A DNA stretch of 28,682 nt from Verrucomicrobiota bacterium (GCA_008932965.1 WBXG01000017.1:1-28682), one strand, 5' to 3'; counted from the first letter of the stretch, positions 123 to 22,335 are shown. The notes: a model not told the origin generated them from the letters alone. Program-made: numbers and translations.

Positions 123-994
123 GTTGGAATCTAGTGGCGCCAGGATGGTCGTTTTTTAGCAGTGATCGGCGAGATTCTCAAAAAATAATGATCAATAATA
201 CCGAGGTTGGTGGTACTTCTCTGGTGCGGGTGGTGATACCGCGTCATTCCCATGAGGCAGTAGCTCCCAAGCTCGCTTTCATGGGAGAATATCAACCCGA
301 ATTCATTTTGGAGGATTTATCACTCATAGAAATGGATCCTCGTTCCGAGGAGGAGATAGCTTTATTGAGCCATGAAAAAGCACCTCGCCTGATTACTGTT
401 CGTGATGGGATTGAGATGAGCCCGATTGCTGCTTTTCGCCTTCTTGCAGCACGTATCCCATCTAGCTATCCCATTTTGCTTAAAGATACTCTCAAGCCGG
501 AAAGCCAGATAACAGAGTCAGAGTTGCATAGAAGAGAAGTTACAAAAAATCTACTTACTGCCTCAACAGTAATTGGGGCCCTTCTGTGTGATGGGATTGG
601 TGATGCTGTTCTCATTCGTGGCGAATCCTCTCCTGAAGCTTCTCTTCGGCTTGCCTATAATATTTTACAATCTGCAGGAGTGCGGATTTTTAAAACGGAT
701 TATGTAGCCTGTCCTTCCTGTGGGCGTACACTTTTTAATCTTCAGGAAACAACAGCACGTATTAAAGCTGCAACAGACCATCTTAAGGGAGTTCGTATTG
801 CTATTATGGGTTGTATTGTTAATGGTCCTGGAGAAATGGCGGATGCCGACTTTGGCTATGTGGGTGGAGCACCCGGAAAAGTGAATCTCTACGTTGGCAA
901 GCAAGCAGTCAAATTTAATATTCCTCAGGAAGAGGCTGTGGAGCAGCTTGTCACCTTGATTCAGGAGCATGGGAAATGGGTAGAAAGAGATTAA
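2..994 (+). CDS. ispG: 4-hydroxy-3-methylbut-2-enyl diphosphate synthase IspG (long form), 5'-truncated by the window edge. The frame runs through hairpin-element copy A (1-122).
   Basis: The C-terminal motifs [20 protein letters not shown] and GCIVNGPGE are typical of IspG/GcpE. The ~200 aa before them fit the extra insert domain of long-form IspG. The N-terminal TIM-barrel part is absent, and the frame stays open to position 2 through the repeat. The stop TAA at 992-994 lies inside the TTAA at the start of copy B. Confidence 0.85.
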
Positions 995-1174
995 CCCGGA
1001 TATTTCATACTGATCTACTACGGAAGCCGGGAACTCAGATGGATGCTGCGTTAGACTCACATTTTGATTTGGGCAGTATGTACACATACAGCCCTGTATC
1101 AAAATGCTCGCCTGCCTTACCCCATCAGCCTTCGCGGCCTCCTCGTCACGATCAGTATGAAACATCCGGGTTAA
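991..1174 (+). mobile_element. Hairpin element copy B (type 1a), full length 184 bp, starting on the ispG stop codon.
   Basis: 5' TTAACCCGGATATTTCATACTGATC and 3' GATCAGTATGAAACATCCGGGTTAA form ~25-nt terminal inverted repeats. The interior hairpin is CATTTTGAT...ATCAAAATG. TTAA is present at both ends. Confidence 0.92.
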
Positions 1175-1243
1175 CCCGCCTATTTCATACCGATTCTGCT
1201 GCGGCTTGCGAACACCTGATAGATACTGCGTCAGTCTCCAACT
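1171..1243 (+). repeat. Hairpin element copy C (type 2), 3'-truncated, abutting copy B through a shared TTAA.
   Basis: TTAACCCGCCTATTTCATACCGATTCTGCTGCGGCTTGCGAACACCTGATAGATACTGCGTCAGTCTC matches the first ~70 nt of copy G (8257-). Confidence 0.8.
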
Positions 1244-1265
1244 TTTTTTAGTCAGAGTTCGATTT

Positions 1266-1898
1266 CTATTTAGGAAAAAACTTTCTAATTTCCTGAAGCA
1301 TACGATGGATGTGGCGATAGCCTTTGACCTTAGAGAGAAGTAGGTAGCTATGCCACGGATCTCCCCATTCTATGATTTCAATGGTGACACGGCGTACCCC
1401 CCACTGGGACATGGCTGTCCGCGTTGGTTTGTAAAGATCGATAGTGTTTGTTCCAGCGAGTGCAAAACCATAATCATCGACAATAAAATTTTCTCCTGTT
1501 GCCTTAATGCGAAACCGAGTTCCAGCTGGCCAACGTGCCCAATCAGCAGCTGCACTGTTGAGCGCTCCATATTTTAAAGGTGTGCCAAGGGCGGAACAAG
1601 CTCCATAACGATGGTGGTCGCGTTCAGAATGAGTGTAGGCTGTTGTACGCACTTTTTGAACAGCAGTACGTGCAAGCGGTTTTTCATATGTTGGAAGTTG
1701 GTGGGCACAACTGCTGAGGAATAATACCGTTGCTACTGCAAGAGATGAAACACCTTGCTGTAGCCTTGTTGGACATTTTGTAATTGCAAATTCACTGTTG
1801 TGATCAATCTCTCTCTTCATAAGAAAGTCTATGTCTGCAAGCATTCCATCATGCTGAAATAACCAATCTGCAACGTGGGAGCAGAGAAGGCTCTGCAT
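1266..1898 (-). CDS. 3D-domain (MltA-like) lipoprotein. Maximal ORF shown; the likely start is the ATG at 1820.
   Basis: The C-terminal half (RTTAYTHSE...NFIVDDYGFALAGTNTIDLY) looks like a 3D domain. The lipobox-like LFLSSC is preceded by a hydrophobic stretch, which fits a start at MKREID (1820) better than 1898. Confidence 0.7.
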   Translation of the reverse strand: MQSLLCSHVADWLFQHDGMLADIDFLMKREIDHNSEFAITKCPTRLQQGVSSLAVATVLFLSSCAHQLPTYEKPLARTAVQKVRTTAYTHSERDHHRYGACSALGTPLKYGALNSAAADWARWPAGTRFRIKATGENFIVDDYGFALAGTNTIDLYKPTRTAMSQWGVRRVTIEIIEWGDPWHSYLLLSKVKGYRHIHRMLQEIRKFFPK

Positions 1899-1906
1899 TC
1901 ATGAAA

Positions 1907-2923
1907 TTATATCGATGAATTATTTGCTGCTACTTGGGCTACGGCACTTGCCACTGTTGTTGCTGCTGCCACAGCAGTAGCTTGTTCAGGAGTGAGTGAA
2001 AGCCCTGGAAGTAAATCTCCTTCGGTTGTTCCGACCCCTTGAATACGACGTTTTTCTTGCCTTTCTTGAGAAATGCGAACGACTTCACGAGCTAAGCCAC
2101 ATTTTTCCATAATACGAATTACATAGGCAGAGGGATCAATTTGCCACCATTTCATTCCGTGAAAAGCAGAGCGAGGAAAAGCATGGTGATTGTTATGCCA
2201 TCCTTCACCCATTGCTAGAATTCCGAAGATAAAATTATTGCGACTTACATCAGTTGTTTCAAAATCCCGGCCACCAAATGTGTGGCAGATAGAATTAACC
2301 GACCAAGTTACATGATGATTGAGAAAGACACGTACAAGTCCACCCCAGAAAAATCCTTGTAATGCTCCAACCTCGAAACCGTGAAGGCCACCACCATGAA
2401 GAGATTCAATCCAACCACACAGTAGGGTGGGTACGAGAAATCCAAGGGCAACCCAAACAAAAAAAGTTTTACTGATAAAAACAATCAGTGGATCTTTGAG
2501 AAGGGGCTTCGCATATTTTTCAATATTAGGCTGGAAATCATCTAGAATCCAACCGACATGAGCATGAAAAAAACTTTTGAGGGGACTATGAGGATCATCC
2601 TCCATATCCGAATTTGCGTGATGTTGAATATGAGTGGCTGCCCAGTTAAGAGCTGGCCCTTGAAGGGTCATGGAGCCTGTGATCAAGAAAAAAGCGCGAA
2701 CCCAGTCGGGTGCATGAAAACTTTTATGGGTTAGCATGCGATGGTAGCCGATGGTGATACCGAAGCCGCCTAGGATAAACATTCCAAGCATGACAAGCAA
2801 GGAGCTCATGTTAACCATTTGATTCCAGAGAAAGTAAATTCCAATCATCGTAGCAATAAGTGGAATCCAAACGACGAATAAAAGAATGGTTTTATTGAGA
2901 GAGGAGGTCTGTGGATGACTCAT
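1907..2923 (-). CDS. Acyl-CoA/acyl-lipid (delta-9 type) fatty acid desaturase.
   Basis: Three histidine boxes (HRMLTH, HIQHHANSD, HNNHH) and N-terminal transmembrane segments. Confidence 0.88.
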   Translation of the reverse strand: MSHPQTSSLNKTILLFVVWIPLIATMIGIYFLWNQMVNMSSLLVMLGMFILGGFGITIGYHRMLTHKSFHAPDWVRAFFLITGSMTLQGPALNWAATHIQHHANSDMEDDPHSPLKSFFHAHVGWILDDFQPNIEKYAKPLLKDPLIVFISKTFFVWVALGFLVPTLLCGWIESLHGGGLHGFEVGALQGFFWGGLVRVFLNHHVTWSVNSICHTFGGRDFETTDVSRNNFIFGILAMGEGWHNNHHAFPRSAFHGMKWWQIDPSAYVIRIMEKCGLAREVVRISQERQEKRRIQGVGTTEGDLLPGLSLTPEQATAVAAATTVASAVAQVAANNSSI

Positions 2924-2980
2924 GATCTTTATAAACTACATCAAAAGATAGGAAATGCAAGGGGAGGTAATGAATCTTTA

Positions 2981-3112
2981 TTAACCTGCATATTTCATAC
3001 CGATCACCTACGAAAGCCGGGAAGCAAGGGTGGATGCTGCGTTGAGCTCGAAGTCTTACCCCATCAGCCTTCGCAGCTCCCTCGTTACGATCAGTATGGA
3101 ATATCTGCTCTA
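2981..3112 (+). mobile_element. Hairpin element copy D (type 1b), with a ~52-bp internal deletion. Sits between the glycosyltransferase stop and the desaturase start.
   Basis: TTAACCTGCATATTTCATACCGATCACCTACGAAAGCCGGGAAG...CCCCATCAGCCTTCGCAGCTCCCTCGTTACGATCAGTATGGAATATCTGCTCTA. The central hairpin is missing relative to copy H. The terminal TA overlaps the stop codon (CTA on +) of the 3110-4210 gene. Confidence 0.85.
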
Positions 3113-4210
3113 GGATATTTTGTTCAAAATAAATGTTGCTATTTTTTGGGTTGCAGAAGAGGTAGCCAAAACTGATAAACACTCTTTCCAATATTTCCAT
3201 GTTGCTGCTTCCTGGGAAAAAACTTCTGCTACAGAAGCAGCAATAGTTTCAGGATAGTGGGCAGCTAAACGACCAATATTATGCCGTTCGATAAGTTCTA
3301 TGTTCCCCTCTTCTTGCCCAGGAACAATATGACTGATTAAAAGTGGACACTTCGCTGCCATAGCTTCATGAACAATGGCACCACCAGCTTTTCCAATATA
3401 GAGATGGTGAGAGGCAAGAAGTTCAGGGATGTTTTTTGTCCAACCTATGAGGCTTAATTGAACCCCATTGAAAATACCTGATTTTTCCAAACTTGCATGC
3501 ATTTCTCTCAAGCGGCCAGTGACGACGGTGATCTCAATATTAGGAATACTTTTCAAGGCCTCTAGGACTTCTAATGTATGTTGGGCTTTGGAAGAGGGGA
3601 GGTAGAGAATTTTCCAAGGAGGTTGTGTTATGATCGGAAGAGAAGGCAACATGGCAAACCGTGGAGCAACGGGGAATCCCAAAACATGAATTTTTTCTCT
3701 AAGAACACCATCTTTAGTTAAGACAGAGGCTGTTTCCTCATCAACAACAATAAAATCGTCACTACCGGCTCGATACCACGCTATATTAATAGCAGTCGAG
3801 TCGGTAATCATTGTGACGAAACGGACCTTGCTTGCTTTATTCCCCTCTTTTCGAAGCTCACGAATGAGAAAAGCATAAAGAGGATAAGTCGAAACAATGA
3901 TGTCAGGCTCGAGTTGATCAATGGTCTTTTGAAGGGCGCGCTTGAGTGGCCCCATCATAAAAAGTGTTCTTTCTAAGGTGCTAGGATGATTCAAAAAATT
4001 AAAGATAACACCCCAAATCATTGGGAATTTATTGATTGCAAGTCGGTATCCTGATTGAAGAGCTTTTGTTAACCAAGGAGTGCTTTGAAGGTAAATATCA
4101 ATGACCGTGACGGCTACTTCCGTACCCTCTTGTAATGCTTCACTAATATTATGGGCTGCTGTGTTATGACCATCACCGAACCCAGCCGTAAGAATAAGAA
4201 CTTTTTTCAT
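3110..4210 (-). CDS. MGDG synthase / UgtP-type (GT28 family) diacylglycerol glycosyltransferase.
   Basis: N-terminal MKKVLILTAGFGDGHNTAA and C-terminal GKAGGAIVHEAMAAKCPLL...PGQEEGN resemble the monogalactosyldiacylglycerol synthase family. Confidence 0.8.
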   Translation of the reverse strand: MKKVLILTAGFGDGHNTAAHNISEALQEGTEVAVTVIDIYLQSTPWLTKALQSGYRLAINKFPMIWGVIFNFLNHPSTLERTLFMMGPLKRALQKTIDQLEPDIIVSTYPLYAFLIRELRKEGNKASKVRFVTMITDSTAINIAWYRAGSDDFIVVDEETASVLTKDGVLREKIHVLGFPVAPRFAMLPSLPIITQPPWKILYLPSSKAQHTLEVLEALKSIPNIEITVVTGRLREMHASLEKSGIFNGVQLSLIGWTKNIPELLASHHLYIGKAGGAIVHEAMAAKCPLLISHIVPGQEEGNIELIERHNIGRLAAHYPETIAASVAEVFSQEAATWKYWKECLSVLATSSATQKIATFILNKIS

Positions 4211-4335
4211 AGAAGAGGCTATGCAACTTTAACCTAAAACCGATAAAGCCTGCATCAGGAATTGGAATTAAAAATAGTTGTTATGGAGATAGCTATTCTG
4301 CATGTTCCATGATATTGGCTACAACATAAATACTT

Positions 4336-4362
4336 ATCCGGATTAACCCGGATTTTCATCAG
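4336..4362 (+). repeat. Hairpin element end remnant (copy E): TIR-to-TIR junction-like ATCCGGATTAACCCGGATTTTCATC.
   Basis: Resembles the copy B/C junction (ATCCGGGTTAACCCGCCTATTTCATAC). It overlaps the last codons and the stop (4343-4345) of the CFA synthase gene. Confidence 0.5.
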
Positions 4363-5611
4363 AAGGAAGCATATAGATGGGAGACTTCAATGTGAGATTT
4401 GTAGGGCGTGAATAGAGCGCCTGTACAGTCGATTTCGAGCGTGTTGCAAATGCGGCCTCACAATAGCAGAGATAGTAAAACCATTTTCTTAAAAAAAGGG
4501 TGGAGCATCCTTGTTTTTGCATTTTAGGTAAGGAGCTGGTAAAGGCAGTGCGCCACAGGGCCATTGTTCGTGCTGCAGAAGGAGTGATATCCTCGCAGTC
4601 TAGCAGGTTGAGATTTCCAGTTTCATTGCAGGCTTCGGTGAGGCGCCTCAAGGAAGGAGTCAATGTTCTTGGAGTAATATATTTTTGAACAAAATCGACG
4701 TTATCACGCAGGAATGGATATTGGTTGTCAGGACAAAGAACTAACTGAAGTACAAGTAATCCTTGTGGTGCAAGTAGGCTTTCTATTTTAGCAAAGAATG
4801 GCTCTAAATCGGGATCATCGGCCAGATCCATCATTTCTATGCAAGCAATTTTGTCAAAGCGTCCTCCCAAATGCTGGTAGTTACAAAAGACAACCTCAAC
4901 GAGATTTGCAACGCCCGCTTTTTCGACATTAATATCAGTTTGCCGATATTGCTCCTCGGAGAGGGTTGTTGCTTGAATACGACATCCATACTTCTGAGCT
5001 GCATAAATTGCAAAGCCACCCCAGCTGCATCCAATATCCAATAAATAATCATGAGCAGTGAGCAGTAATTTTTGGCAAAGGCGTTCCCACTTAGCTTCCT
5101 GAGCTAGCGTGAGACTTTCCGTGGATGTCTTAAAGTAAGCAGCTGAGTAGGCCATGGAGGTACCTAGCCAATGTTGAAAAAAAGAGGTATGGACGTTGCT
5201 TTGGTCATAAAAAAGGGCCTCCTTTTTTTTCTTAGAGCAATGGCGTAAGAGGTGCTGGACTTGATTGGCAATGCCAAGAATATTATGTTTTTCAAGACCT
5301 TGTTCCCTCACTTTTTCTCCAGAGAGGAAGGAAGCATTTAAAAAAAACCATGCAATGACTCCAGTAAGATGATTCGTCTCCCATTCATTGTGGAGATAGG
5401 ATTCAGCAAGACCTATAGAACCGTACAGCACCCAACGACGGTAGAATGCTTCATTCTTAATTTTTATTTCTGCATGCAATTCTTTATCGAGCCCCCCAAA
5501 CATGCGAGATGATCCTCCTGGCATTGTGAGACGTAAGGTGCCTCGACGGCCTCGATGGAGGGTCTCTAAAACAAGATTACGATACAGTTTAGTGAATGCG
5601 GCTTGGAACAT
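4343..5611 (-). CDS. cfa: Cyclopropane-fatty-acyl-phospholipid synthase family methyltransferase.
   Basis: SAM-binding motif LLDIGCSWGGFAIYAAQKYG, with overall length and layout typical of CFA synthases. Confidence 0.85.
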   Translation of the reverse strand: MFQAAFTKLYRNLVLETLHRGRRGTLRLTMPGGSSRMFGGLDKELHAEIKIKNEAFYRRWVLYGSIGLAESYLHNEWETNHLTGVIAWFFLNASFLSGEKVREQGLEKHNILGIANQVQHLLRHCSKKKKEALFYDQSNVHTSFFQHWLGTSMAYSAAYFKTSTESLTLAQEAKWERLCQKLLLTAHDYLLDIGCSWGGFAIYAAQKYGCRIQATTLSEEQYRQTDINVEKAGVANLVEVVFCNYQHLGGRFDKIACIEMMDLADDPDLEPFFAKIESLLAPQGLLVLQLVLCPDNQYPFLRDNVDFVQKYITPRTLTPSLRRLTEACNETGNLNLLDCEDITPSAARTMALWRTAFTSSLPKMQKQGCSTLFLRKWFYYLCYCEAAFATRSKSTVQALYSRPTNLTLKSPIYMLPSDENPG

Positions 5612-5713
5612 GGTTTTTGCCGTGGGGGGATATAGCTGTGAGTTGAAAACTCCAAATTAACCACAAAAAAGAAGAAAGAACACAAAGAAAAATAAGGACA
5701 ATAGAGAATGACA

Positions 5714-5769
5714 AGCCCGGATATTTTATAGCAATCACTTGTGACGATCAGTATGAAATATTCTGACTA
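5714..5769 (+). repeat. Mini hairpin element (copy F, ~56 bp) that keeps both termini only.
   Basis: AAGCCCGGATATTTTATA...GTGACGATCAGTATGAAATATTCTGACTA in the divergent intergenic region between cfa and the GT4 gene. Confidence 0.6.
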
Positions 5770-5808
5770 GATTTCATTTTTCAATGACGATGAGAAAAAA
5801 ATATCATA

Positions 5809-6966
5809 GTGTGGCCCATGCATCCATACCTTCAACAACTACTTCGACCCAGGAAAAAATCCGGATTAGTTTCCCTGCCTCCTCATGGTGAATTTCGAGG
5901 TCATGCTTTAGGAAAAGTTCTTATTGCTTATATAACATGGCCTTTTAGGGAAGGGCACCATGCACCACGAGCTCGTGGGCACACCAATGCTTTTGAAGTC
6001 ATAGCAATGGCTAGCTCCTATCAAGAGCTCGGTTACCAGGTTGAAATTGTCGATTACGATGATAACACTTATATTCCCCCTTCAGATTGTTGTGTCGCTA
6101 TTGATCTGCATGGGCAACTGGAAAGATGGAATTCTTTCTTGCCTGAAACATGCCAGCGTATTCTTCATGCAACAGGGCCCCACTGGTTATTGTGGAATGA
6201 TTCAGAATTAAGGCGTCTCCTTGCAATCCAAGATCGCAAAGGGGTTGCCCTCTTTCCCCAGCGGCAGGTGGCTCCCTCTCATAGTGCCTCTCTTGCAGAC
6301 CAGATTGTTGTGCTAGGTAACAACTACACAATGCAGAGTTTTCAATTTGCAAATAAGCCAATCACTCGTGTTCCTCTCTCTTCTGCTTATGAATTTGATT
6401 ATCCTCAAGAGCGCGATCTTTCTGTTGCAAAGAAGCATTTTCTTTGGGTAGGAAGTTATGGAATGGTGCACAAGGGTCTTGATTTAGTACTCGATGCTTT
6501 TGCAAGGATGCCAGAGCTTTCACTCACCGTCTGTGGACGTCCAGAGAAGGAGAGAGATTTCTTTCGTCTTTATGAAAAAGAATTGCTCCATACCCCCAAT
6601 ATTACTTTTCATGGATGGATCGATATGGCTTCTGATGCCTTTAGCACAATCTCAAAGACCCATGCTGCTATTATCTATCCCTCGAGTGCCGAGGGAGGAG
6701 CTGGATCTGTCATTCATTCCATGCACGCGGGTATGGTTCCTATTTGTACGAGAGAAGCCTCGGTAGATCTTGGGGATTTTGGACTTCTCATTACAGAAGG
6801 TTCAGTAGAAGCGGTCATGGAGGCTGCTCTTGAGTTTTCTTCCTTATCAGATCAAGAGGTTTCAGAGCGTGCTGCTGCCTCCTATGCACATGCTCGTACG
6901 CACCATACACAAGAACTATTTCAAAAAAATTACCGAGACTTCGCAAAACATCTTCTTCATAGATAA
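5809..6966 (+). CDS. Glycosyltransferase family 4 (group 1). GTG start at 5809; alternative ATG at 5818.
   Basis: The C-terminal half (KGLDLVLDAF...YPSSAEGGAGSVIHSMHAGMVPI) has a GT-B/GT4-type layout. Confidence 0.8.
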   Translation: MWPMHPYLQQLLRPRKKSGLVSLPPHGEFRGHALGKVLIAYITWPFREGHHAPRARGHTNAFEVIAMASSYQELGYQVEIVDYDDNTYIPPSDCCVAIDLHGQLERWNSFLPETCQRILHATGPHWLLWNDSELRRLLAIQDRKGVALFPQRQVAPSHSASLADQIVVLGNNYTMQSFQFANKPITRVPLSSAYEFDYPQERDLSVAKKHFLWVGSYGMVHKGLDLVLDAFARMPELSLTVCGRPEKERDFFRLYEKELLHTPNITFHGWIDMASDAFSTISKTHAAIIYPSSAEGGAGSVIHSMHAGMVPICTREASVDLGDFGLLITEGSVEAVMEAALEFSSLSDQEVSERAAASYAHARTHHTQELFQKNYRDFAKHLLHR

Positions 6967-7048
6967 ATGAGGTTTTCTAAGTCCCTATCCCAATAGAGAT
7001 GATCTAGGGTATCTTACTAAATGGCATTCACCCCTGTTCTTCTCAATA

Positions 7049-7963
7049 ATGGAACCTATGGACTCTATTAGCATTATTATCCCAGCCTATAATGCAGCTA
7101 CGACTTTAAAAAAAACACTCGAGTCATGTCTTTCCCAAACAACAGCCCCTCTTGAAATTATTCTAGTTAATGATGGGAGTAGTGATGCGACAGCTTCGGT
7201 TGCAGATTTATTTAAAAATGTGATTCGCTATTTTCATTTGGAAAATGGGGGGGTGTCTCGTGCTAGAAATTATGGGGCCTCGCAGGCAAAGGGCGATTGG
7301 TTGCTCTTTCTTGATGCAGATGATCGATTGCTTTCACAGGCGCTGGAGAAATTACGAGAAGCAGCATTAAAGCAAAAGGTAGGGGTTGCCTATGGCATGG
7401 TTTTGGAACAACGTGAACCTCCAGAACAAGCCCGTCTCAATGGATTTAATTATGCGGCTGGTCAGCCACCCGCAGGATCACAACGCATTTTTTGGAGGAA
7501 TGCTATCATTACTCCTGGCTCAGCTATCGTGAGAAAGAGTCTTCACGAAAAATGTGGCGGCTTTGTAACTGGGTATGAACCGATGGAGGATCGCGATTAT
7601 TGGATCAAGTGTGGAATGCTAGAACCGATCGCTTTTTGTGAAACGGTGGTGCTTGATAAACTATGGCAACCTGCTTCCCATGGTTCCCAACACAGTAAAA
7701 GAATTTATCGGGGGCAGGTGGCACAGCGTGCACTCAAAAACTGGGCTCAGGTAAGAAATATTCCTGCCGACTGGATGCCGCTTGATCGGGAGATTATCAA
7801 ATCAGCACTCGATGAGGCTGTTTGGAGGCGCTCGTACACTATTTTAAGGCCATTGCTTACCGAGGCTCAGGCTCACGGTGTATGGCATTGGAGAGCTTTT
7901 TTGCTCTCGATTCTATTCCCTAGAAAAAATCCGCAATGGATGATGGGGGGCATGGGGAAGTAG
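7049..7963 (+). CDS. Glycosyltransferase family 2.
   Basis: ISIIIPAYNAATTL, ILVNDGSSDAT, RARNYGA and LLFLDADD are classic GT2 motifs. Confidence 0.88.
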   Translation: MEPMDSISIIIPAYNAATTLKKTLESCLSQTTAPLEIILVNDGSSDATASVADLFKNVIRYFHLENGGVSRARNYGASQAKGDWLLFLDADDRLLSQALEKLREAALKQKVGVAYGMVLEQREPPEQARLNGFNYAAGQPPAGSQRIFWRNAIITPGSAIVRKSLHEKCGGFVTGYEPMEDRDYWIKCGMLEPIAFCETVVLDKLWQPASHGSQHSKRIYRGQVAQRALKNWAQVRNIPADWMPLDREIIKSALDEAVWRRSYTILRPLLTEAQAHGVWHWRAFLLSILFPRKNPQWMMGGMGK

Positions 7964-8243
7964 GGGGCATATCTTGTTTGCTTTTTTTCTGTAATTTTTT
8001 GGAATGTCGTAAAATCACATTAAAAAGATGTTCAATGAAGAGAGGATCAAGGTTGTAGCTTTTTGCGAGGGAGGCATGTTTGTTTTTCAATTCTTCTTCT
8101 CGTGCTGGATCATGAATGTTCTGTTTCTCTTGAAGTTTGAGAAATCCAATGATGGAAGAGAGATGATTGCGTCGGGCGAGTTGTTCTATAATGAATGTAT
8201 CGATCTGATCGACCTCGGCTCGGAGCTCTTGGAGTGTTTTCAT
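7920..8243 (-). CDS. Chorismate mutase (AroQ class).
   Basis: LQELRAEVDQIDTFIIEQLARR...DPAREEEL... matches the AroQ-type helical chorismate mutase pattern. It lies downstream of tyrA in the aro operon. Confidence 0.85.
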   Translation of the reverse strand: MKTLQELRAEVDQIDTFIIEQLARRNHLSSIIGFLKLQEKQNIHDPAREEELKNKHASLAKSYNLDPLFIEHLFNVILRHSKKLQKKSKQDMPPTSPCPPSSIADFF

Positions 8244-8256
8244 AAAGATAGCCTGA

Positions 8257-8440
8257 TTAACCCGGATATTTCATACTGATTCTGCTGCGGCTTGCGAACA
8301 CCCGATGGATACTGCGTCAGTCTCGAATTGCTCCTCGGGCAGTATGAAACATACAGCCGTCGTCGCAATCCATCACCTTCCTTGTCTGCATCAGCCTTCG
8401 CGGCCTCCTCGTCACGATCAGTATGAAACATCCGGGTTAA
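8257..8440 (+). mobile_element. Hairpin element copy G (type 2), full length 184 bp, in the tyrA-chorismate mutase intercistronic spacer.
   Basis: TTAACCCGGATATTTCATACTGATTCTGCTGCGGCTTGCGAACACCCGATGG...CATCAGCCTTCGCGGCCTCCTCGTCACGATCAGTATGAAACATCCGGGTTAA. It abuts the tyrA stop (8441-8443) and ends 13 nt from the chorismate mutase start codon (8241-8243). Confidence 0.92.
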
Positions 8441-9160: not shown

Positions 9161-9219
9161 TTTATTTGGGGTGCTATATTTCTATGAATCACTTTTATCT
9201 TAGATTGTTTTTTAATGTA

Positions 9220-10311: not shown

Positions 10312-10320
10312 AAGGGGGTA

Positions 10321-11799
10321 TCATAGTATCACTTCTTTTAAGGCCTTCAGAACGATTGTATCGTCTATTTCGTGAATGACCGATCCTTGGGTTCTATCAA
10401 CCTTACCAATCTGACTCAATAAAACGGTTCGAATCGCTCTTGAGCCTCTTTTTTTATCATAACGTGTTGCTTCGAGAAGATCATTAGGATTCATGCTGCT
10501 TAGGAGCATGGGATCTAACCCAAATATTTCATTCTGATCACCTGCGCAGACCGGGAAATCAGATGGATGCTGCGTTGAGCTCGAAGTCTTCCTCGGGCAG
10601 TAGGGACTCATACAGCCGTCGTTAGACTTCATCACTCGCCTGGCCCCATCAGCCTTCGCAGCCTCCTCGTTACGATTAGTATGAAATATCCGGGTTAATT
10701 TGAATTGATGAAAAAAATCAACGATCATGTCTGCTTCCGTTTTGGAGCAGATTCCTAGGAGTTCACTGATTTTGAGTTCGACTAATATTCCTAACCCTAC
10801 GGCATATCCATGCATGATTTTATATTGAGAAACCTGCTCCATAGCATGCCCTATGGTGTGACCAAAATTTAAAATCATCCGTTCACCAGATTCTTTTTCA
10901 TCCTTGTGAACAAGAGCCATCTTCTGTTCTACCGCCTTGATAACTACCCCCTCTAGCAAATCAAGATCTGGAATCAAAAGTTGGGCAAGATGTTCTTGTA
11001 CGAAAAAAAATTGATCTCGATCATTTGTTAGGAATATTTTAATGGCTTCCATGAGGCCATTGATCATCTGTTCTTGGGAGAGTGTTGTTAAAAAATTAAG
11101 GTCGGCAATCACTGCTGTGGGTTGCCAAAACGCCCCAATGAGATTCTTTCCATAAATCGTATTAATAGCTGTTTTTCCACCAATACTGCTGTCAACCATT
11201 GCAAGTAACGTTGTTGGTATCTGAATGTAGGGAATTCCTCGCATGTAGGTCGCTGCAACAAAGCCTGCAAGATCCCCAACGACTCCCCCTCCTAGGGCCA
11301 CGATCATTGTATTACGTCCACATTGATGCCGGAGCATTTCACCTTCAAGGCGTTCTTTTACCCTGCTGTTTTTTGATTTTTCTCCAGCTCGGAATGAGAG
11401 GAGCTGGGCCTGAAAACCACGCTGGAGTAGTTTTTCAAGCAACGCATCACCATACAGTTTTTTGACATGATGATCCGTAATTATGACCACCTTCTGCTCT
11501 AGTGAGAGAAAGGTTTCTAAGCTCTCTAGCCCGGATATTTCATGCTGATCACCTACGGAAGCCGGGAAGTTAGATGGATGCTGCGTTGATCTCGAAGTCT
11601 TCCTCGGGCAGTGTGTATACACACTGCCCGAGGAAGACTTCATCGCTCGCCTTGCCCCATCAGCCTTCGCGGCCTCCTCATCACGATCAGTATGAAATAT
11701 CCGGGTTATGATATCCCTGCCGATCAGGATCGGATACTGATAACCGGGCGCAGAGGGAAGTTCTAGATAGAGTTGTTGGGGGGTAGTTTGATGTTTCAT
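10321..11799 (-). CDS. aroB: 3-dehydroquinate synthase carrying two in-frame 60-codon hairpin-element insertions (492 aa; 372 aa without them).
   Basis: AroB motifs are intact (GGGVVGDLAGF, DSSIGGKTAIN, NFGHTIGHAME, HGYAVGLG). Two segments, [11 protein letters not shown]...DQHEISGL and TRIFHTNRNEE...DQNEIFGL, are translations of element copies I and H. Confidence 0.9.
   Translation of the reverse strand: MKHQTTPQQLYLELPSAPGYQYPILIGRDIITRIFHTDRDEEAAKADGARRAMKSSSGSVYTHCPRKTSRSTQHPSNFPASVGDQHEISGLESLETFLSLEQKVVIITDHHVKKLYGDALLEKLLQRGFQAQLLSFRAGEKSKNSRVKERLEGEMLRHQCGRNTMIVALGGGVVGDLAGFVAATYMRGIPYIQIPTTLLAMVDSSIGGKTAINTIYGKNLIGAFWQPTAVIADLNFLTTLSQEQMINGLMEAIKIFLTNDRDQFFFVQEHLAQLLIPDLDLLEGVVIKAVEQKMALVHKDEKESGERMILNFGHTIGHAMEQVSQYKIMHGYAVGLGILVELKISELLGICSKTEADMIVDFFHQFKLTRIFHTNRNEEAAKADGARRVMKSNDGCMSPYCPRKTSSSTQHPSDFPVCAGDQNEIFGLDPMLLSSMNPNDLLEATRYDKKRGSRAIRTVLLSQIGKVDRTQGSVIHEIDDTIVLKALKEVIL
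10515..10698 (+). mobile_element. Hairpin element copy H (type 1b), 184 bp, inside aroB (C-terminal third), in frame.
   Basis: CTAACCCAAATATTTCATTCTGATCACCTGCGCAGACCGGGAAATCAGATGGATGCTGCGTTGAGCTCGAAGTCTTCC...CCCCATCAGCCTTCGCAGCCTCCTCGTTACGATTAGTATGAAATATCCGGGTTAA. No stop codon in the aroB frame. Confidence 0.92.
11526..11709 (+). mobile_element. Hairpin element copy I (type 1b), 184 bp, inside aroB (after residue ~31), in frame.
   Basis: CTAGCCCGGATATTTCATGCTGATCACCTACGGAAGCCGGGAAGTTAGATGGATGCTGCGTTGATCTC...CCCCATCAGCCTTCGCGGCCTCCTCATCACGATCAGTATGAAATATCCGGGTTAT. No stop codon in the aroB frame. Confidence 0.92.
11594..11641. repeat. Perfect 48-bp palindrome at the centre of copy I.
   Basis: GAAGTCTTCCTCGGGCAGTGTGTATACACACTGCCCGAGGAAGACTTC equals its own reverse complement (checked base by base). 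The homologous region of copy L is only an imperfect hairpin. Confidence 0.95.
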
Positions 11800-13031: not shown

Positions 13032-13095
13032 TTAGCCGGAACATTTCATACTGATCGCCTGAGGAAACCGGGAAGTCAGATGGATGCTGCGTTAG
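13032..13095 (+). repeat. Hairpin element copy J1 (type 1), 5' ~64 nt only.
   Basis: TTAGCCGGAACATTTCATACTGATCGCCTGAGGAAACCGGGAAGTCAGATGGATGCTGCGTTAG. It breaks off at the TA where the J2 terminus begins. Confidence 0.8.
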
Positions 13096-13190
13096 CCCAC
13101 ATATTTCATACTAGTTCGTCGCGAGGCGCTGCAAATCCTGATGCAGAAACCACCGGCAGTCGGGAGACCGCGGTGGAGACTGCCCTGGCT
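13093..13190 (+). repeat. Element-like segment J2: a TIR-like 5' end followed by a GC-rich module that is unique in this window.
   Basis: TAGCCCACATATTTCATACTAG resembles the 5' TIR. The following ~75 nt (GTTCGTCGCGAGGCGCTGCAAATCCTGATGCAG...GGCAGTCGGGAGACCGCGGTGGAGACTGCC) contain two short hairpins and match no other copy here. Confidence 0.55.
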
Positions 13191-13374
13191 TTAACCCGGA
13201 TATTTCACACTAAATCTATTACGGCTTGTGGAAAGCTCATCATTACTGCGTTGGTCTCGAATTGTGATTTGGACAGTAGGGACTCATACATCCCAGCGTC
13301 AAAATACTCGCCTGCCTGACCCCATCAGCCTTTGTGGCCTCCTCGTTACGACCAGTATGAAATTTCGATACTAA
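13191..13374 (+). mobile_element. Hairpin element copy J3 (type 3), 184 bp, upstream of purS.
   Basis: TTAACCCGGATATTTCACACTAAATCTATTACGGCTTGTGGAAAGCTC...CCCCATCAGCCTTTGTGGCCTCCTCGTTACGACCAGTATGAAATTTCGATACTAA. Its 5' module is shared with copies M, O and P. Confidence 0.88.
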
Positions 13375-13428: not shown

Positions 13429-13659
13429 ATGAAAGTTCGCATCACCATCATGCCACAAGCTGCAGTCCTTGATCCAGCGGGGGTTGCCACTGCACATGCT
13501 TTAGAACACTTGGGGCTCCATGGGGTAAGCTCTCTACGTATTGGAAAATTAATCGAGCTCGATATCGAAGGAGCCACTGAGGAAGAACTTCATCAGGCCT
13601 GTCGGGATCTCCTTTCCAATCCTGTGATGGAAGATTATTGCCTTGAGGTTATCTCCTAA
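13429..13659 (+). CDS. purS: Phosphoribosylformylglycinamidine synthase subunit PurS.
   Basis: A 76-aa protein (MKVRITIMPQAAVLDPAG...) immediately upstream of purQ and purL. Confidence 0.9.
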   Translation: MKVRITIMPQAAVLDPAGVATAHALEHLGLHGVSSLRIGKLIELDIEGATEEELHQACRDLLSNPVMEDYCLEVIS

Positions 13660-13661
13660 CA

Positions 13662-14372: not shown

Positions 14373-14404
14373 TTTAATCCCAAGGACGCATTAAACTAAC
14401 AACG

Positions 14405-16666: not shown

Positions 16667-16689
16667 TAACTTGACATGAAGGGGCCAAG

Positions 16690-16727
16690 CTTCCACAAGC
16701 CATAATGGATGGAGTATGAAATATCCT
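16690..16727 (-). repeat. Hairpin element remnant P (type 3, 5' end, reverse orientation).
   Basis: TTCCACAAGCCATAATGGATGGAGTATGAAATATCC parallels TTCCACAAGCCGTAATAGATTTAGTGTGAAATATCTGGG of copy M. It supplies the upstream ATG (16709) of the maximal ispE ORF. Confidence 0.55.
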
Positions 16728-16759
16728 TTCAAGGAGACTCCACTCCTTATTTTTTCATT

Positions 16760-17617
16760 ATGTCAGCCTCCTCTCTAACGCTCTTAGCACCAGCAAAAAT
16801 CAATCTCTCGCTGCAGCTCTTAAACAAAAGAGCTGATGGATATCATGAAATTGAGACGTTGATGGCACCTATTACTCTGGCTGATGAGCTTGAAATTACC
16901 TGCACTCATACTGCTGCTCCCATTCCAATAACACTCACCTGCAATGATCCTTCCCTGCCACTTGGAGAAAAGAACCTATGCGTACAAGCTGCTCATGCTT
17001 TTCAGAAAGCAACTGGTATTCAAGAGCCAGTTTCTATCACCCTGTTAAAAAAAATCCCATATGGAGCAGGGCTAGGTGGGGGGAGTAGTGATGCAGCTGC
17101 GGTGCTACAAGGTATGAATGCTCTTTTCAAAAAGCCTTTAGTCGAGGAGGAGCTGCATCTCCTCTCCGTATCACTAGGATCAGATGTCCCCTTTTTTTTA
17201 CAAAGGAAACCTGCATGGTGCCGTGGCCGTGGTGAAATTCTCTCTGAAGCAGCGCCTCTTCCAGCATGGAACCTGCTTCTAATCAAGCCTCCCTTTTCCG
17301 TAGATACCACTTGGGCTTACCAGCACTGGGACAAAAAAAAGTGGACCCCAAAAGAGCCAATGACTCACGATGAGATCACCCTTTTCAATCATCTCGAGCT
17401 TCCTGTTTTTGAAAAGTACCTTCTCCTTCCAGTCTTAAAAGAGTGGTTATTAAAGCTACCTGAAGTAATCACAGTTTGGATGAGTGGCTCTGGATCAACA
17501 ATGGTGGCACTGTTAAACCAAGAGCTCTCTTGGGAGCAGAATCAAAGACTCCAAACAACGATAAGAACTACTTTTGGAGAGTATTTTTGGATTAAAAGTG
17601 TCACTTTTCTAACTTAA
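16760..17617 (+). CDS. ispE: 4-diphosphocytidyl-2-C-methyl-D-erythritol kinase (start chosen at MSASS; the maximal ORF starts at 16709 inside a repeat remnant).
   Basis: LLAPAKINLSLQLLNKRADGYHEIETLM and PYGAGLGGGSSDAAAV are GHMP-kinase IspE motifs. The stop TAA at 17615-17617 lies in the TTAA at the start of copy K. Confidence 0.9.
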   Translation: MSASSLTLLAPAKINLSLQLLNKRADGYHEIETLMAPITLADELEITCTHTAAPIPITLTCNDPSLPLGEKNLCVQAAHAFQKATGIQEPVSITLLKKIPYGAGLGGGSSDAAAVLQGMNALFKKPLVEEELHLLSVSLGSDVPFFLQRKPAWCRGRGEILSEAAPLPAWNLLLIKPPFSVDTTWAYQHWDKKKWTPKEPMTHDEITLFNHLELPVFEKYLLLPVLKEWLLKLPEVITVWMSGSGSTMVALLNQELSWEQNQRLQTTIRTTFGEYFWIKSVTFLT

Positions 17618-17799
17618 CCCGCATATTTCACACCGATCTACTACGGAAGCCGGGAAGTCAGATGGATGCTGCGTTAGACTCACATTTTGATTTGAGCAGT
17701 ATATACACATACAGCCCTGCATCAAAATGCTCGCCTGCCTTGTACTAATAAGCTTTGCACGGCGCCTCATGACACTTCAGTATGAAACATCCGGGTTAA
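17614..17799 (+). mobile_element. Hairpin element copy K (type 1a, diverged 3' module), 186 bp, between the convergent ispE and exonuclease genes.
   Basis: TTAACCCGCATATTTCACACCGATCTACTACGGAAGCCGGGAAGTCAGATGGATGCTGCGTTAGACTCACATTTTGATTTGAGCAG...CTTCAGTATGAAACATCCGGGTTAA. The left TTAA holds the ispE stop and the right TTAA holds the exonuclease stop on the other strand. Confidence 0.9.
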
Positions 17800-18395: not shown

Positions 18396-18504
18396 TAAGG
18401 TAGAGTCAAATGACTATGACGTTTCTAAATTCGTAATTGGCATAATTTGTTTCCTATGAAGTAGAGTGCTCCTTCTTCCCATTCCATCTTTCTGGAATCC
18501 AGGG

Positions 18505-18688
18505 GTAACCCGGATATTTCATCCCGATCTACTGTAGAAAACGGGAAGTCAGATGGATGCTGCGTTGATCTCGAAGTCTTCCTCGGGCAGTGTGTATACA
18601 CACTGCCGTCGTCAGACTTCATCACTCGCCTCGCCCCATTAGTCTTCGCGGTCTCCTCGTCACGATCAGTATAAAATATCTGGGTTAA
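18505..18688 (+). mobile_element. Hairpin element copy L (type 1b), 184 bp, between the DAHP synthase stop and the exonuclease start.
   Basis: GTAACCCGGATATTTCATCCCGATCTACTGTAGAAAACGGGAAGTCAGATGGATGCTGCGTTGATCTCGAAGTCTTCCTCGGGCAGTGTGTATACACACTGCCGTCG...CACGATCAGTATAAAATATCTGGGTTAA. Confidence 0.9.
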
Positions 18689-18714
18689 GATGAGGGATTC
18701 TCTCATGGCTTCTT

Positions 18715-19794: not shown

Positions 19795-19839
19795 TTTTTC
19801 TAGACTAGGATTTTTAAAATAATATGGCAAGATCACCCC

Positions 19840-20328: not shown

Positions 20329-20356
20329 CCCGCTCGTCTTGCCCTTTCAGGGATGC

Positions 20357-20460
20357 TTAACGCGCATATTTCATACTGCCCAATCACAATTCGAGACCAA
20401 CGCAGTAATGAGGAGCTTTCCACAAGCCGTAATAGATTTAGTGTGAAATATCTGGGCTAG
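20357..20460 (-). mobile_element. Hairpin element copy M (type 3), reverse orientation, 104 bp with an 80-bp internal deletion.
   Basis: Its reverse complement, CTAGCCCAGATATTTCACACTAAATCTATTACGGCTTGTGGAAAGCTCCTCATTACTGCGTTGGTCTCGAATTGTGATTGGGCAGTATGAAATATGCGCGTTAA, follows J3 up to GGGCAGTA and then jumps to the 3' TIR. Its end encodes the last 7 codons and the stop of the 20438-21283 gene. Confidence 0.85.
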
Positions 20461-21283
20461 TTTCTTGATGCTTTTTCTTTTGAAGTAGAACCCACAACCA
20501 AGCTCCACCAAAGTTCTCATCACGCTCTGCACGAATTAATTTTTCAAATCGGTGGAGTAATTGAATGACAAGATCCTCCGTGTGATCCCAGGAAACCGCT
20601 TCAAAAGGACCTCCAGCTCCCTGTTCCATATTTGTTCCCATATCGTAGAGTAAAAAACCTTCAGGTTTCAGAACACGTGCATGCTCTCTCATCATTGCTT
20701 CCAGATCGAAAGCATGATCCACGCAATTGGTGTAGAGCATATCAATCGAATTCTCTTTCTCCTGAAGCTTCATAAAATCACCTGCACGAACAATACGGTT
20801 GTCAGGACCAGGATTGAGATCGATTCCGTAAGCATTAAAAAACCCTAGATCGTGTAATACTTCCACTTCTGTTCCCTGGCGGGCACCTGAGCAGAGAATC
20901 ACCGCATCTCGTGAAAGGAGCTGTGTCAAATGTTTGAAGCGGCTGTAAAATTTCAAACGATACTCGCAAATATCCCAATTACTAAATCCTCCTTTCATCT
21001 TGAGCATTTCATCAAGCTTCTGCTGCTGATGTGTCACATATTCGTCGTAGCTGGAATAGTCCCTTTTGAGAAGATCACCCTCTTTTTCCGATTTCCAACC
21101 TCCTTCACCATGGTGCTTGAGACGGACCTCATGCTTATCACGCTCATGTTGATAATTCGCATCCTGCATCTTCCGAAGTTTGCGAATGTATCCATACCCT
21201 CCTGGAATAACGAGATGCAGGGCTGTTTTGAACCAGAACCGTGGATAAAATGAGGGAAGAAGCGTGTGTCGAAGGTAGGCCAT
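20438..21283 (-). CDS. Class I SAM-dependent methyltransferase whose C-terminus is encoded by element copy M.
   Basis: Rossmann-like ILCSGARQGTEVEVL...GIDLNP and LYTNCVDHAFD...LKPEGFLL. The terminal SPDISH-stop is a translation of AGCCCAGATATTTCACACTAA (element TIR). Confidence 0.75.
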   Translation of the reverse strand: MAYLRHTLLPSFYPRFWFKTALHLVIPGGYGYIRKLRKMQDANYQHERDKHEVRLKHHGEGGWKSEKEGDLLKRDYSSYDEYVTHQQQKLDEMLKMKGGFSNWDICEYRLKFYSRFKHLTQLLSRDAVILCSGARQGTEVEVLHDLGFFNAYGIDLNPGPDNRIVRAGDFMKLQEKENSIDMLYTNCVDHAFDLEAMMREHARVLKPEGFLLYDMGTNMEQGAGGPFEAVSWDHTEDLVIQLLHRFEKLIRAERDENFGGAWLWVLLQKKKHQETSPDISH

Positions 21284-21386
21284 AAAATCAGCCTGCAGGC
21301 TACAACCTTCAGGCTTCAGGCTGAAGAAAAAAATATTTTAGGAGAAAATAAATGTTTAAAATCTAATATTGCTCAGGACTGAAGTA

Positions 21387-21441
21387 CCCATCATCCGTTA
21401 TTCATTACCCATGATACTTTAGTATGAAATATCTGGGTGAA
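21387..21441 (+). repeat. Degenerate 3'-end remnant of a hairpin element (copy N).
   Basis: CCCATCATCCGTTATTCATTACCCATGATACTTTAGTATGAAATATCTGGGTGAA, compared with the consensus CCCCATCAGCCTTCGCGGCCTCCTCGTCACGATCAGTATGAAATATCCGGGTTAA. It ends 3 nt from the stop of the 21445-22335 gene. Confidence 0.55.
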
Positions 21442-21444
21442 ATT

Positions 21445-22335
21445 TTATCCTCGTAAAAACATTTTCCAAAAAAGAGTAAGTGGTCCTTCAAGGTAGAGAA
21501 TATCGTGTTTAAAAGCCCCTACGTAGTGGCGGGTGATACTTTTTTTATCGCGAAAGAATCCCCAACTAATTTCATAGGTGAAAGGAAGTGCTCCTCCATG
21601 ATTCCAGTGAGAAGCCATCAGTGCGTAGAGGGTCTGTTCAAAAAATTGAGGATGGTGGGCCGTTGTTTCGAAGGTGATGAGGAGTTGTTCGGCAAGTTCG
21701 AGTGAGAGAGCTTTTTTAGGAACAAGCATGAGTCCACTGTTAAAACGGGGCCATAGATTCACCCCCATTTTTTGTTCAATCTCTTCCCGAGGAATACAAT
21801 ATTTTTCCTTCGTATCTTCGTTGTAAAAAAAATCTTCACTTTCTCCATCGGCCCAATCCAAGATTTCTTCTGGTTTGCGATAAAAAAGAACATCGGAATC
21901 GAGGAAGATAAATCGTTCACCTAATGCAAAAACAGGAATATCAAAAAATTTCAAAAAAAGATTATGCTTTGAGCGATGTGCCCAACATGCAGGATAGTTT
22001 GCTAACGCTTGTTGGACTCGTGCCTCAGATTCCTCTCTGGAAATAAAATGAACCCCAGGCAACACTGCCTCTATACGACAGCGTTCTTTTTCTTCAACCG
22101 ATCCATCTTCATGAATGAAAATATTCCAACGTCGTTCTGTAAAAAATTCAAAACTCACTGCAGCAAGGAGGCCTGCATGCCATGTCTTAGAGGAGACCAG
22201 CAAATGAACTGATATATCAGGATTCTGGAGTTTCTCTAAGCCAGGACGCTTTGAAAGGGTTGCAACCAAGGTTCCTAGAGCATGCCCACATTTGCTAAGT
22301 AGTAAGCGTGCAAGAGTACGGAGTGATCGGGTCAT
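21445..22335 (-). CDS. Putative GT-A fold (GT8-like) glycosyltransferase.
   Basis: FIFLDSDVLF (DxD-type motif) and RFNSGLMLVP resemble GT8 nucleotide-sugar transferases. There are no other recognisable motifs. Confidence 0.55.
   Translation of the reverse strand: MTRSLRTLARLLLSKCGHALGTLVATLSKRPGLEKLQNPDISVHLLVSSKTWHAGLLAAVSFEFFTERRWNIFIHEDGSVEEKERCRIEAVLPGVHFISREESEARVQQALANYPACWAHRSKHNLFLKFFDIPVFALGERFIFLDSDVLFYRKPEEILDWADGESEDFFYNEDTKEKYCIPREEIEQKMGVNLWPRFNSGLMLVPKKALSLELAEQLLITFETTAHHPQFFEQTLYALMASHWNHGGALPFTYEISWGFFRDKKSITRHYVGAFKHDILYLEGPLTLFWKMFLRG

Follow-up and report, generated by a model that had tools for sequence, protein, structure and literature searches.

Miniature inverted-repeat elements with a YTAR target site and the coincidence of their ends with stop codons in a Chthoniobacterales contig

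The IS5 group of the IS5 family of insertion sequences (IS) generates a 4-bp duplication of the target YTAR (Y, pyrimidine; R, purine). Members of the IS1380 family make target duplications of 4-5 bp and have termini that start with CC (ISfinder). Within the latter family a duplication of 5 bp is on record for IS1247 (PMC3281130), and IS1380 transposases, prokaryotic relatives of the eukaryotic piggyBac superfamily, are used as its outgroup; piggyBac itself has TTAA as its target (PMC10813416). Transposable elements of the miniature inverted-repeat kind (MITEs) are known to form in-frame fusions with open reading frames (ORFs): examples are the Rickettsia palindromic elements (RPE), ERIC, the 107-bp Correia element and YPAL (PMC2229807). 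In Coxiella burnetii copies of QMITE1 and QMITE2 extend into the 3′ ends of functional genes. The overlap can be limited to the 2-3 bp of the stop codon (ubiB, CBU_2020), whereas elsewhere the element adds a short tail to the C-terminus; why the 3′ end is preferred is, according to the authors, unknown (PMC5896051). Here we describe a family of MITEs whose ends coincide with stop codons in a stretch of DNA from the Verrucomicrobiota. This stretch, hereafter the window, is an entire metagenome contig of 28,682 nt (JGI 3300009164 Ga0114975_10000538) that derives from an uncultured Chthoniobacterales bacterium.

In its 28.7 kb the window carries a single family of MITEs, represented by about 17 copies or remnants (Table 1). 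That the repeats constitute a non-autonomous transposon family is a conclusion in which we have good confidence: as far as sequence can tell, all five features by which a MITE is recognised – terminal inverted repeats, a target duplication, size and copy number, mobility and an autonomous partner – were found. The coincidence of their ends with stop codons is in turn likely to be explained by the target site together with selection. This would not be a new mechanism, and would be mostly predictable from the target sequence.

The nature of the duplicated target is central to the argument. Both ends of full copies read Y-T-A-R, and the left and right 4-mers are the same in 54 of 91 full copies (28 TTAA, 19 CTAG and seven with the non-palindromic CTAA...CTAA). 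Moreover, the two 4-mers co-vary, both in their first bases (odds ratio (OR) 32, p = 8e-11) and in their last (OR 31, p = 2e-9). Because an element that duplicates TA and carries fixed terminal bases cannot give this pattern, the duplication is the 4-bp YTAR (TTAA, CTAG, CTAA/TTAG) and not TA. The TA dinucleotide, which a first-pass annotation of the window had taken as the feature common to the junctions, is thus ruled out as the duplicated unit by co-variation of the outer bases (CTAA...CTAA, CTAG...CTAG). The same annotation had raised a target preference for T-TAA or C-TAG, and this suggestion is well founded in the form of YTAR, with the whole stop codon lying within the duplicated target.

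A number of consequences follow for genes. Since the element integrates into the tetranucleotide YTAR and duplicates it, every TAA or TAG stop preceded by Y is a legitimate target, given that positions 2-4 of YTAR are TAA or TAG on both strands. After insertion the whole 4-mer, and hence the stop, stays on the side of the gene at either end of the element and the protein is unchanged; that the stop survives is seen by comparison with an empty orthologous site (below). Other insertions into genes would be lost, unless the 4-mer is read as YTA (leucine), giving an open insert of 60 codons in either orientation, or unless they are retained at the extreme 3′ end of the gene, where a six-codon tail, xPDIS[YH], would be followed by a stop. 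Target specificity and long-term purifying selection in a compact genome – selection that would include pressure against the splitting of operons – would then concentrate the surviving copies on stops.

Whether the excess at stops is real was addressed by comparison with the target sites that are available. Relatives were identified by scanning genomes, one for each species, for 18 nt from the terminal repeat, the matches listed being mainly in three metagenome-assembled genomes (MAGs) of Chthoniobacterales/Spartobacteria (CAIWMF01, JAIPKF01 and JBMOFC01). The pooled sample of ~470 kb comprises the window and 71 element-bearing loci, drawn from three related MAGs and, for a single locus, from a fourth; it is made of 8-kb tiles that each hold at least one terminal-repeat match. 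Eighty-nine cleanly bounded full copies were excised, one 4-mer being left for each, before every YTAR site was classified. The 4,847 coding, 977 intergenic and 131 stop-overlapping sites so obtained differ markedly in their occupancy by full copies: 24/4847 (0.5%), 33/977 (3.4%) and 17/131 (13%), respectively. Stop sites are thus enriched over intergenic sites (OR 4.3, p = 2e-5). Expressed differently, 17 of the 50 non-coding insertions are on stops against an expectation of 11.8% (binomial p = 3.5e-5).

The result holds when unclassified and partial copies are added. With all 15 unclassifiable copies taken as intergenic the OR is 2.9 (p = 9e-4), and with partial copies that keep one intact end it is 3.1 (31/145 stop versus 82/1026 intergenic sites, p = 4e-6). 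Taken singly, the window and the three well-sampled MAGs all show an effect in this direction (OR 2.5-6.2). Occupied sites have no flanking sequence in common, and the insertions are therefore independent events. Occupancy of intergenic YTAR sites was 2/57 at 10 nt or less from a stop, 2/89 at 11-30 nt, 12/210 at 31-100 nt and 8/334 beyond 100 nt. With no enrichment at 1-30 nt from a stop (4/146), what is in excess is exact overlap, not proximity. Measured against all TA or all YTAR sites the excess is large, but it then mostly reflects the loss of coding insertions, the occupancy of coding YTAR sites being sevenfold below that of intergenic ones.

The possibility that the coincidence is simply one of chance proximity – in a compact genome with short spacers any intergenic repeat ends near a stop – draws on the window itself, where stops hold about four of some 12 primary non-coding insertions, no significant departure from the 23.5% expected (12 stop and 39 intergenic sites), and where three of the eight cases originally listed (those of tyrA, the methyltransferase and the GT8-like gene) are instances of proximity and not of overlap. 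The excess in the pooled sample is real, some three- to fourfold relative to non-coding YTAR, for which the statement that element ends meet stops "far more often than expected" is too strong; and this excess, together with its confinement to exact overlap, makes chance a very unlikely explanation. An element of IS630/Tc1-mariner or Correia type that duplicates TA, and whose terminal A completes a TA-A stop, was the implicit model of the first-pass annotation. It would account for the TA at every junction and for the T-TA-ACCC seen in most copies, but we regard it as next to impossible: the outer and inner bases vary together as a direct 4-bp repeat, in a manner that a fixed terminus does not permit, and the sole autonomous element found with these inverted repeats belongs to the IS1380 family and is flanked by CTAG. 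A further proposal of the annotation, that selection retains insertions that preserve the ORF, fares better. It is supported by the stepwise rise in occupancy from coding to intergenic to stop sites, and by the fact that the surviving coding inserts are nearly all in frame or at the extreme 3′ end. Occupied stops, moreover, have a convergent gene downstream in 9 of 18 cases (co-directional in the other 9), compared with 23 of 111 (88 co-directional) where the stop is unoccupied (p = 0.015), and this fits a cost of splitting operons. We infer that the three- to fourfold excess that remains over other intergenic YTAR sites is more probably due to selection than to a bias of integration.

Several points nonetheless weigh against target site and selection as a full account, the outcome in the window alone being one of them. 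A simple model in which anywhere past the ORF is neutral cannot explain a preference for exact overlap of this size. The context of the target is asymmetric, on the left side only relative to element orientation, with G at -3 in 50% versus 23% and R at -2 in 71% versus 37% (74 classified full copies from the window and loci L001-L089), and by our own tally the left end of the element is at the stop 21 times and the right end eight times. In addition, genes were called with our own codon-score ORF caller and not with a standard gene finder, although its calls in the window agree with Pfam. Such asymmetries of flank and orientation are odd for a near-palindromic element, and tandem arrays are a partial explanation only. 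These same features – exact overlap with no excess 1-30 nt downstream, the G at -3 and R at -2, and the bias toward the left end – are what one would expect of an active integration bias, in which the transposase prefers YTAR at gene ends by virtue of an extended asymmetric motif or of DNA or transcription features of 3′ ends; copies at stops are, besides, not significantly older than others when HMM score is used as a proxy for age (p = 0.17). But all informative copies are old, so that their distribution has already been filtered by long selection, the bias toward convergent neighbours is a prediction of selection, and the flank signal is partly due to tandem arrays; on balance we think such a bias unlikely. 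A bolder version, for which the odds seem to us slimmer, is that the family, a relative of piggyBac among prokaryotes, is built for the colonisation of genomes that are compact: because YTAR doubles as a stop or a leucine codon, and because the net 60 codons are open in both orientations, it would settle on stops and in essential genes with little harm, and the stop excess, the GRN-YTAR flank and the orientation bias would be a real integration preference and not the work of selection alone. Hairpins at 3′ ends might also be kept because they are useful, as terminators, RNase III sites or stabilisers of mRNA. Such roles have been suggested for the REP, ERIC and Correia elements. In favour of this, the hairpins of the present family have high stability (-80 to -116 kcal/mol, z -10 to -15), occupied stops are enriched between convergent genes, and orientation is biased relative to the upstream gene. 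Yet a function at the 3′ end should work equally well some nucleotides downstream, where sites are not enriched; promoter regions and gene interiors hold copies just as readily; the hairpin is not followed by a T-tract and has no match in Rfam; and the hairpin decays in retained copies, copy I being 66% identical between species. Adaptive recruitment of this kind is therefore improbable.

The eight stop codons to which attention was originally drawn are all correctly placed, and their genes are confirmed by Pfam. The eight differ in kind: four are exact overlaps, the cfa stop lies inside a remnant, and the remaining three are cases of proximity. The exact overlaps are those of the ispG TAA (992-994, within TTAA 991-994, left end of copy B), the MGDG-synthase-like TAG (3110-3112, within CTAG 3110-3113, right end of copy D), the ispE TAA (17615-17617, within TTAA 17614-17617, left end of copy K) and, on the minus strand, the exonuclease TAA (17796-17798, within TTAA 17796-17799, right end of copy K). 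The tyrA stop (TAG, 8441-8443) is merely adjacent: it is part of a separate CTAG that abuts TTAA 8437-8440 of copy G and is outside the duplication. The methyltransferase gene runs into copy M by way of CTAG 20457-20460, in a frame other than that of the TAG in this 4-mer, and takes up six element codons (..SPDISH) before stopping at an internal TAA (20438-20440). The GT8-like stop (21445-21447) is a near miss, 4-7 nt from the 25-nt remnant N.

For cfa, the stop is the reverse complement of 4343-4345 and falls in the TTAA that centres remnant E, the last cfa codons (..NPG*) being derived from the remnant. Relative to locus L093 the core of this remnant is a 16-nt insertion at the cfa stop: GAAAAATAGGAG there reads GAAAA[TCCGGGTTAATCCGGA]TAAG in the window. 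In appearance the palindrome is a right tip joined through TTAA to a left tip; it may be the trace of an excision, the product of an extreme internal deletion, or the point at which two copies meet end to end.

A key issue is whether the stops existed before the insertions. A metagenome scan with the MGDG-synthase-like protein returned a single close relative, L093, in which the ortholog is 85% identical at the protein level and the site of copy D is empty. There the sequence reads ...AACAGG-TAA-TAAGGGGG...CTCTCCTTGCATTTCC, against ...TCC-TAG-[D]-TTAA-TAAAGATT...CCCTTGCATTTCC in the window, and the right 4-mer and flank of the copy D insertion are collinear with the L093 stop codon and the sequence downstream of it. 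The C-terminus of ispE is likewise at its native position, 40 homologs ending at the same aligned position. From the ends of the ispE homologs and the empty site in L093 it follows that the stops were there before the elements. The ispE of locus L092 is longer and ends in TGA, and so provides no empty site for copy K. When reconstructed junctions were used to look for empty sites in the 89 loci that had been fetched, the matches were mostly to nested or tandem copies, with only the aroB of L037 being informative.

Copy K calls for separate comment. Its insertion on the ispE stop is orthologous in locus L090, which has different downstream genes; synteny between the two ends exactly at 17799. 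The view that copy K is one insertion into the overlapping stops of two convergent genes is accordingly rejected, given this break and a right arm that belongs to another subfamily. Judged from these sequences, it is probable that two copies recombined to give the right junction, so that K would represent two stop-codon junctions. The right arm itself (17745-17799; compare L090 from 7038 onward and L096 12548-12602) suggests a chromosomal rearrangement by recombination between copies.

Insertions that lie within genes bear directly on the role of selection. The YTA (leucine) frame is open in 42 and 39 of the 89 copies for the two orientations, and the other frames essentially never are. For canonical 184-nt copies outside genes the figures are 21 and 22 of 28 (75-79%), against 7.7% of composition-matched shuffles. 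The open frame was considered as proof of adaptation and rejected as such: one of three frames, at 7.7% each, is not significant for a family consensus. Among the 24 coding insertions, 16 are in phase 0 and open (copies H and I in aroB included), and 15 of these 16 are of the canonical 184 nt. Phase-1 insertions are mostly at gene ends, and the tail xPDIS[YH]* found in the methyltransferase of the window occurs in five of them in related genomes.

Three in-frame inserts are found in the window, two in aroB (H and I) and one in ispG (A). In aroB homology resumes on both sides of each insert, and 3-dehydroquinate synthases from the PDB align only between the two. An ortholog of aroB that is without copy H, in L037, has FFRKLNITPTLISKMNPVDLLEATRQDKK where the window has FFHQFKL[60 aa]DPMLLSSMNPNDLLEATRYDKK. 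Copy I is orthologous in L090 (681-864; genes ~90% identical in nucleotide sequence), where it is still an open 60 codons; the element is 66% identical and the flanking aroB 93%. This comparison of sequences indicates that the frame is kept as the peptide and the hairpin drift. For copy A the missing part is supplied by L096, a contig 99.5% identical to the window that extends upstream and encodes a complete ispG of 655 aa with a 60-codon insert, LTRIFHTNLLRR...HDQYEISGL.

Homologs of ispE from other Chthoniobacterales/Verrucomicrobiota also carry in-frame inserts of the same family (P0031, P0038 and P0041, of 358-359 aa, and P0040, of 367 aa); these inserts (..AQIFHASHSE...GHEISGL.. and ..LARIFHHSRDEKAAKADE...) are at two positions unlike any in the window. 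In the window itself the start of the longest ispE ORF (MEYEISFQG..., ATG 16709) is derived from an element, and homologs begin 17 residues downstream (MSASSLTLLAPAKINL; MSxxSLTLLAPAKINL). At the position of the remnant concerned, 16691-16726, L090 has a full copy. The annotated 302-aa ispE product is thus probably over-extended, with ATG 16709 not the real start, to judge by the alignment of its N-terminus. There are in addition several ORFs of 83-166 aa that consist largely of element sequence (976-1251 and 2915-3175 on the plus strand, 665-1165 on the minus strand, 8305-8556 on the plus strand and 18425-18706 on the minus strand); three of them (976-1251, 2915-3175 and 8305-8556) are called as domain-less genes of 91, 86 and 83 aa on public contigs. 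These element-derived ORFs are probably spurious hypothetical proteins.

Copies were located by repeat finding, by a fuzzy search for terminal repeats and with an nhmmer profile made from seven window copies. Among the matches listed, the profile gave 202 non-redundant hits over the ~486 kb of the window and the 71 element-bearing loci; 92 of these hits are full length. With the 4-mers on its two sides counted in, the canonical unit measures 184 nt; the body of 176 nt (CCCGG...CCGGG) is without a transposase and the net insertion is 180 nt. The terminal inverted repeats of ~25 nt are conserved over the 91 full copies (CCCGGATATTTCATACTGATC...GATCAGTATGAAATATCCGGG), and the entire unit is self-complementary, so as to form a single long hairpin with a folding energy of -79.9 kcal/mol in copy B (z = -9.9) and -116 kcal/mol in copy I (z = -15). 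No Rfam family matches the window.

Subfamilies have central segments that are wholly different (1060-1105 versus 11594-11641 and 18573-18620) and each perfectly self-complementary: ACATTTTGATTTGGGCAG... versus GAAGTCTTCCTCGGGCAGTG.... Across subfamilies, then, the central sequence has been replaced and the hairpin kept. There is also a longer class of element, with 261-295 nt between the same terminal repeats (L017, L024, L025, L026, L032, L036, L047, L052, L058, L074, L088 and others). Tandem or nested arrays in which neighbours share one 4-mer are seen at B/C (1171-1174), at J1/J2/J3 (13032-13374) and at many other loci. For six of the 17 stop-site copies the apparent start of another copy abuts the far end, this being only a degenerate fragment in three. 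Each insertion yields two new YTAR targets that are themselves harmless.

Two other metagenome contigs, L096 (window 1-11252) and L098 (window 9-7851), are ~99.5% identical to the window and show no indels, which indicates that about nine element copies are fixed in the population from which the window derives. There was accordingly no sign of recent transposition in this population, no copy being polymorphic between the 99.5% identical contigs over 11 kb. Past mobility is supported by filled and empty orthologous sites: L093 is without copy D and remnant E, and L037 is without copy H. The insertions in aroB, between the M42 peptidase gene and purS (the J1 junction) and at the ispE stop are orthologous in L090, a species ~10% divergent in nucleotide sequence.

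The origin of the family was sought through distant pairs of its terminal repeats. This search led to one unit of 1.8 kb in a Pedosphaerales MAG (L010, 4912-6720), which reads CTAG-CCCGGATATTTCATACTGG...CAGGTATGAAATATCCGGG-CTAG and whose terminal 18 nt are identical to those of the MITE. Its ORF of 392 aa (5321-6496) matches Pfam DDE_Tnp_1_4 (2.7e-97) and NCBIfam transpos_IS1380 (1.6e-72), the match spanning only the first ~300 profile positions (Pfam 5-299 of 435; NCBIfam 2-295 of 419). The 4-bp duplication and the CCCGG termini of the MITE agree with what is typical of the IS1380 family. On this evidence the MITE probably derives from an IS1380-family insertion sequence, and would presumably be mobilised in trans by the transposase of that element. 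Three points weaken the evidence on the parent: the L010 copy is truncated in appearance and may be defective, it comes from an order, Pedosphaerales, different from that of the host, and a search for the transposase in the fetched loci found the L010 copy only and none in the sampled Chthoniobacterales loci.

The window is gene dense. Pfam supports ispG, a fatty-acid desaturase, the MGDG-synthase-like glycosyltransferase, cfa, two further glycosyltransferases, tyrA, aroC, aroB, an M42 peptidase, purQ, purL, ispE, an RNase T-type exonuclease, a DAHP synthase, a DUF520 protein and a methyltransferase. Its proteins have homologs in Chthoniobacterales, and a contig of MAG JAIPKF01 matches part of the window at 88% identity. 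An ORF of 107 aa on the minus strand (7920-8243), which overlaps the end of a GT2 gene, is a chorismate mutase (CM_2) by the Pfam match of its identical counterpart in L096. With this gene an aroB-aroC-tyrA-CM cluster is complete.

Table 1. Positions of copies and remnants of the MITE family in the 28,682-nt window (HMM, hidden Markov model profile positions)
Feature	Position	Strand	Description
Copy A	1..122	+	3′ two-thirds of element, truncated by contig start; TTAA 119-122; nhmmer HMM 64-184; in frame in ispG
Copy B	991..1174	+	Full length, 184 nt, TTAA at both ends; left TTAA 991-994 holds ispG stop 992-994
Copy C	1171..1249	+	5′ fragment, HMM 2-79; TTAA 1171-1174 common with copy B (tandem array)
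Copy D	2981..3113	+	Internally deleted, 133 nt; left TTAA, right CTAG 3110-3113; on stop of MGDG-synthase-like gene (minus strand)
Remnant E	4335..4356	.	22-nt palindrome TATCCGGATTAACCCGGATTTT; two element tips abutting TTAA; at cfa stop
Copy F	5712..5770	+	59-nt mini-copy, two inverted repeats only; 4-mers CAAG (decayed) and CTAG; divergent cfa/GT1 promoter region
Copy G	8257..8440	+	Full length, TTAA at both ends; between chorismate mutase start and tyrA stop
Copy H	10515..10698	+	In-frame 60-codon insertion, aroB C-terminal domain (aroB on minus strand)
Copy I	11526..11709	+	In-frame 60-codon insertion near aroB N-terminus
Cluster J	13032..13374	+	Between M42 peptidase and purS; J1 13032-13096 (5′ fragment), J2 13092-13144 (inverted 3′ fragment)
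J3	13191-13374	+	Full copy in cluster J, TTAA...CTAA
Terminal remnant upstream of ispE	16691..16726	-	Provides ATG at 16709 of longest ispE ORF
Copy K	17614..17799	+	186 nt; left TTAA on ispE stop, right TTAA on exonuclease stop; right arm of another subfamily
Copy L	18505..18688	+	Full length, GTAA...TTAA; between exonuclease start and DAHP synthase stop, 27 nt from DAHP stop
Copy M	20357..20460	-	Half-size deletion derivative, TTAA...CTAG; methyltransferase (minus) ends inside
Remnant N	21417..21441	+	25-nt 3′ tip, decayed 4-mer TGAA, near GT8-like stop
Copy O	28274..28458	+	Diverged, full size, TTAG...TTAA; near contig end

The literature searched yielded no account of a MITE derived from IS1380, nor of any MITE family in the Verrucomicrobiota, and the elements of the window thus appear to belong to an undescribed and very abundant family of Chthoniobacterales MITEs with a link to IS1380. 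The finding has practical consequences for annotation, since such elements are a source of spurious hypothetical ORFs, of false start codons and of 60-residue inserts in the housekeeping enzymes of public databases. They may also mark the breakpoints of rearrangements.

Set beside known systems, the family shares with IS1380, IS1247, ISEcp1 and ISPme1 of the IS1380 family termini that start with CC and a 4-bp duplication that is within the 4-5 bp of that family; it differs in being a non-autonomous MITE of 176 bp, in its strict use of YTAR and in its very high density (17 copies or remnants in 28.7 kb). There are also parallels with piggyBac, namely the duplication of a TA-centred tetranucleotide, of which TTAA is the commonest here, and termini that start with CCC. 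The target of the MITE is nevertheless relaxed to YTAR (TTAA at both ends in 28/91 copies and CTAG at both ends in 19/91), and the transposase of L010 matches the IS1380 model and not the piggyBac model. With the IS5 group the likeness is one of target consensus and duplication length, so that the same stop-codon logic would apply equally; the only autonomous partner found here, however, is of IS1380 type and not of IS5 type.

In their relation to genes the closest parallels are with elements of other hosts. Like the RPE of Rickettsia, the elements are palindromes of ~100-200 bp with a continuous ORF, and lie in frame in conserved housekeeping genes (here aroB, twice, and ispG). The resemblance is a functional one only, the element having no match in Rfam, and the host here is a free-living freshwater or soil member of the Verrucomicrobiota and not an obligate intracellular bacterium; moreover, both the target duplication and the IS family of the parent have been identified, the insert measures 60 codons exactly and the frame is provided by the YTA leucine. 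RPE-like colonisation of essential genes in frame (aroB, ispG, ispE) is thereby extended to free-living bacteria, with inserts that stay open across species. With the QMITEs of Coxiella the family shares ends that fall on stop codons, for which the duplicated YTAR offers an explanation: it holds the stop, and insertion is silent with respect to the protein. What sets the present family apart from those elements is that the stop lies inside the duplicated target, and that the overlap has been tested against the target sites available.

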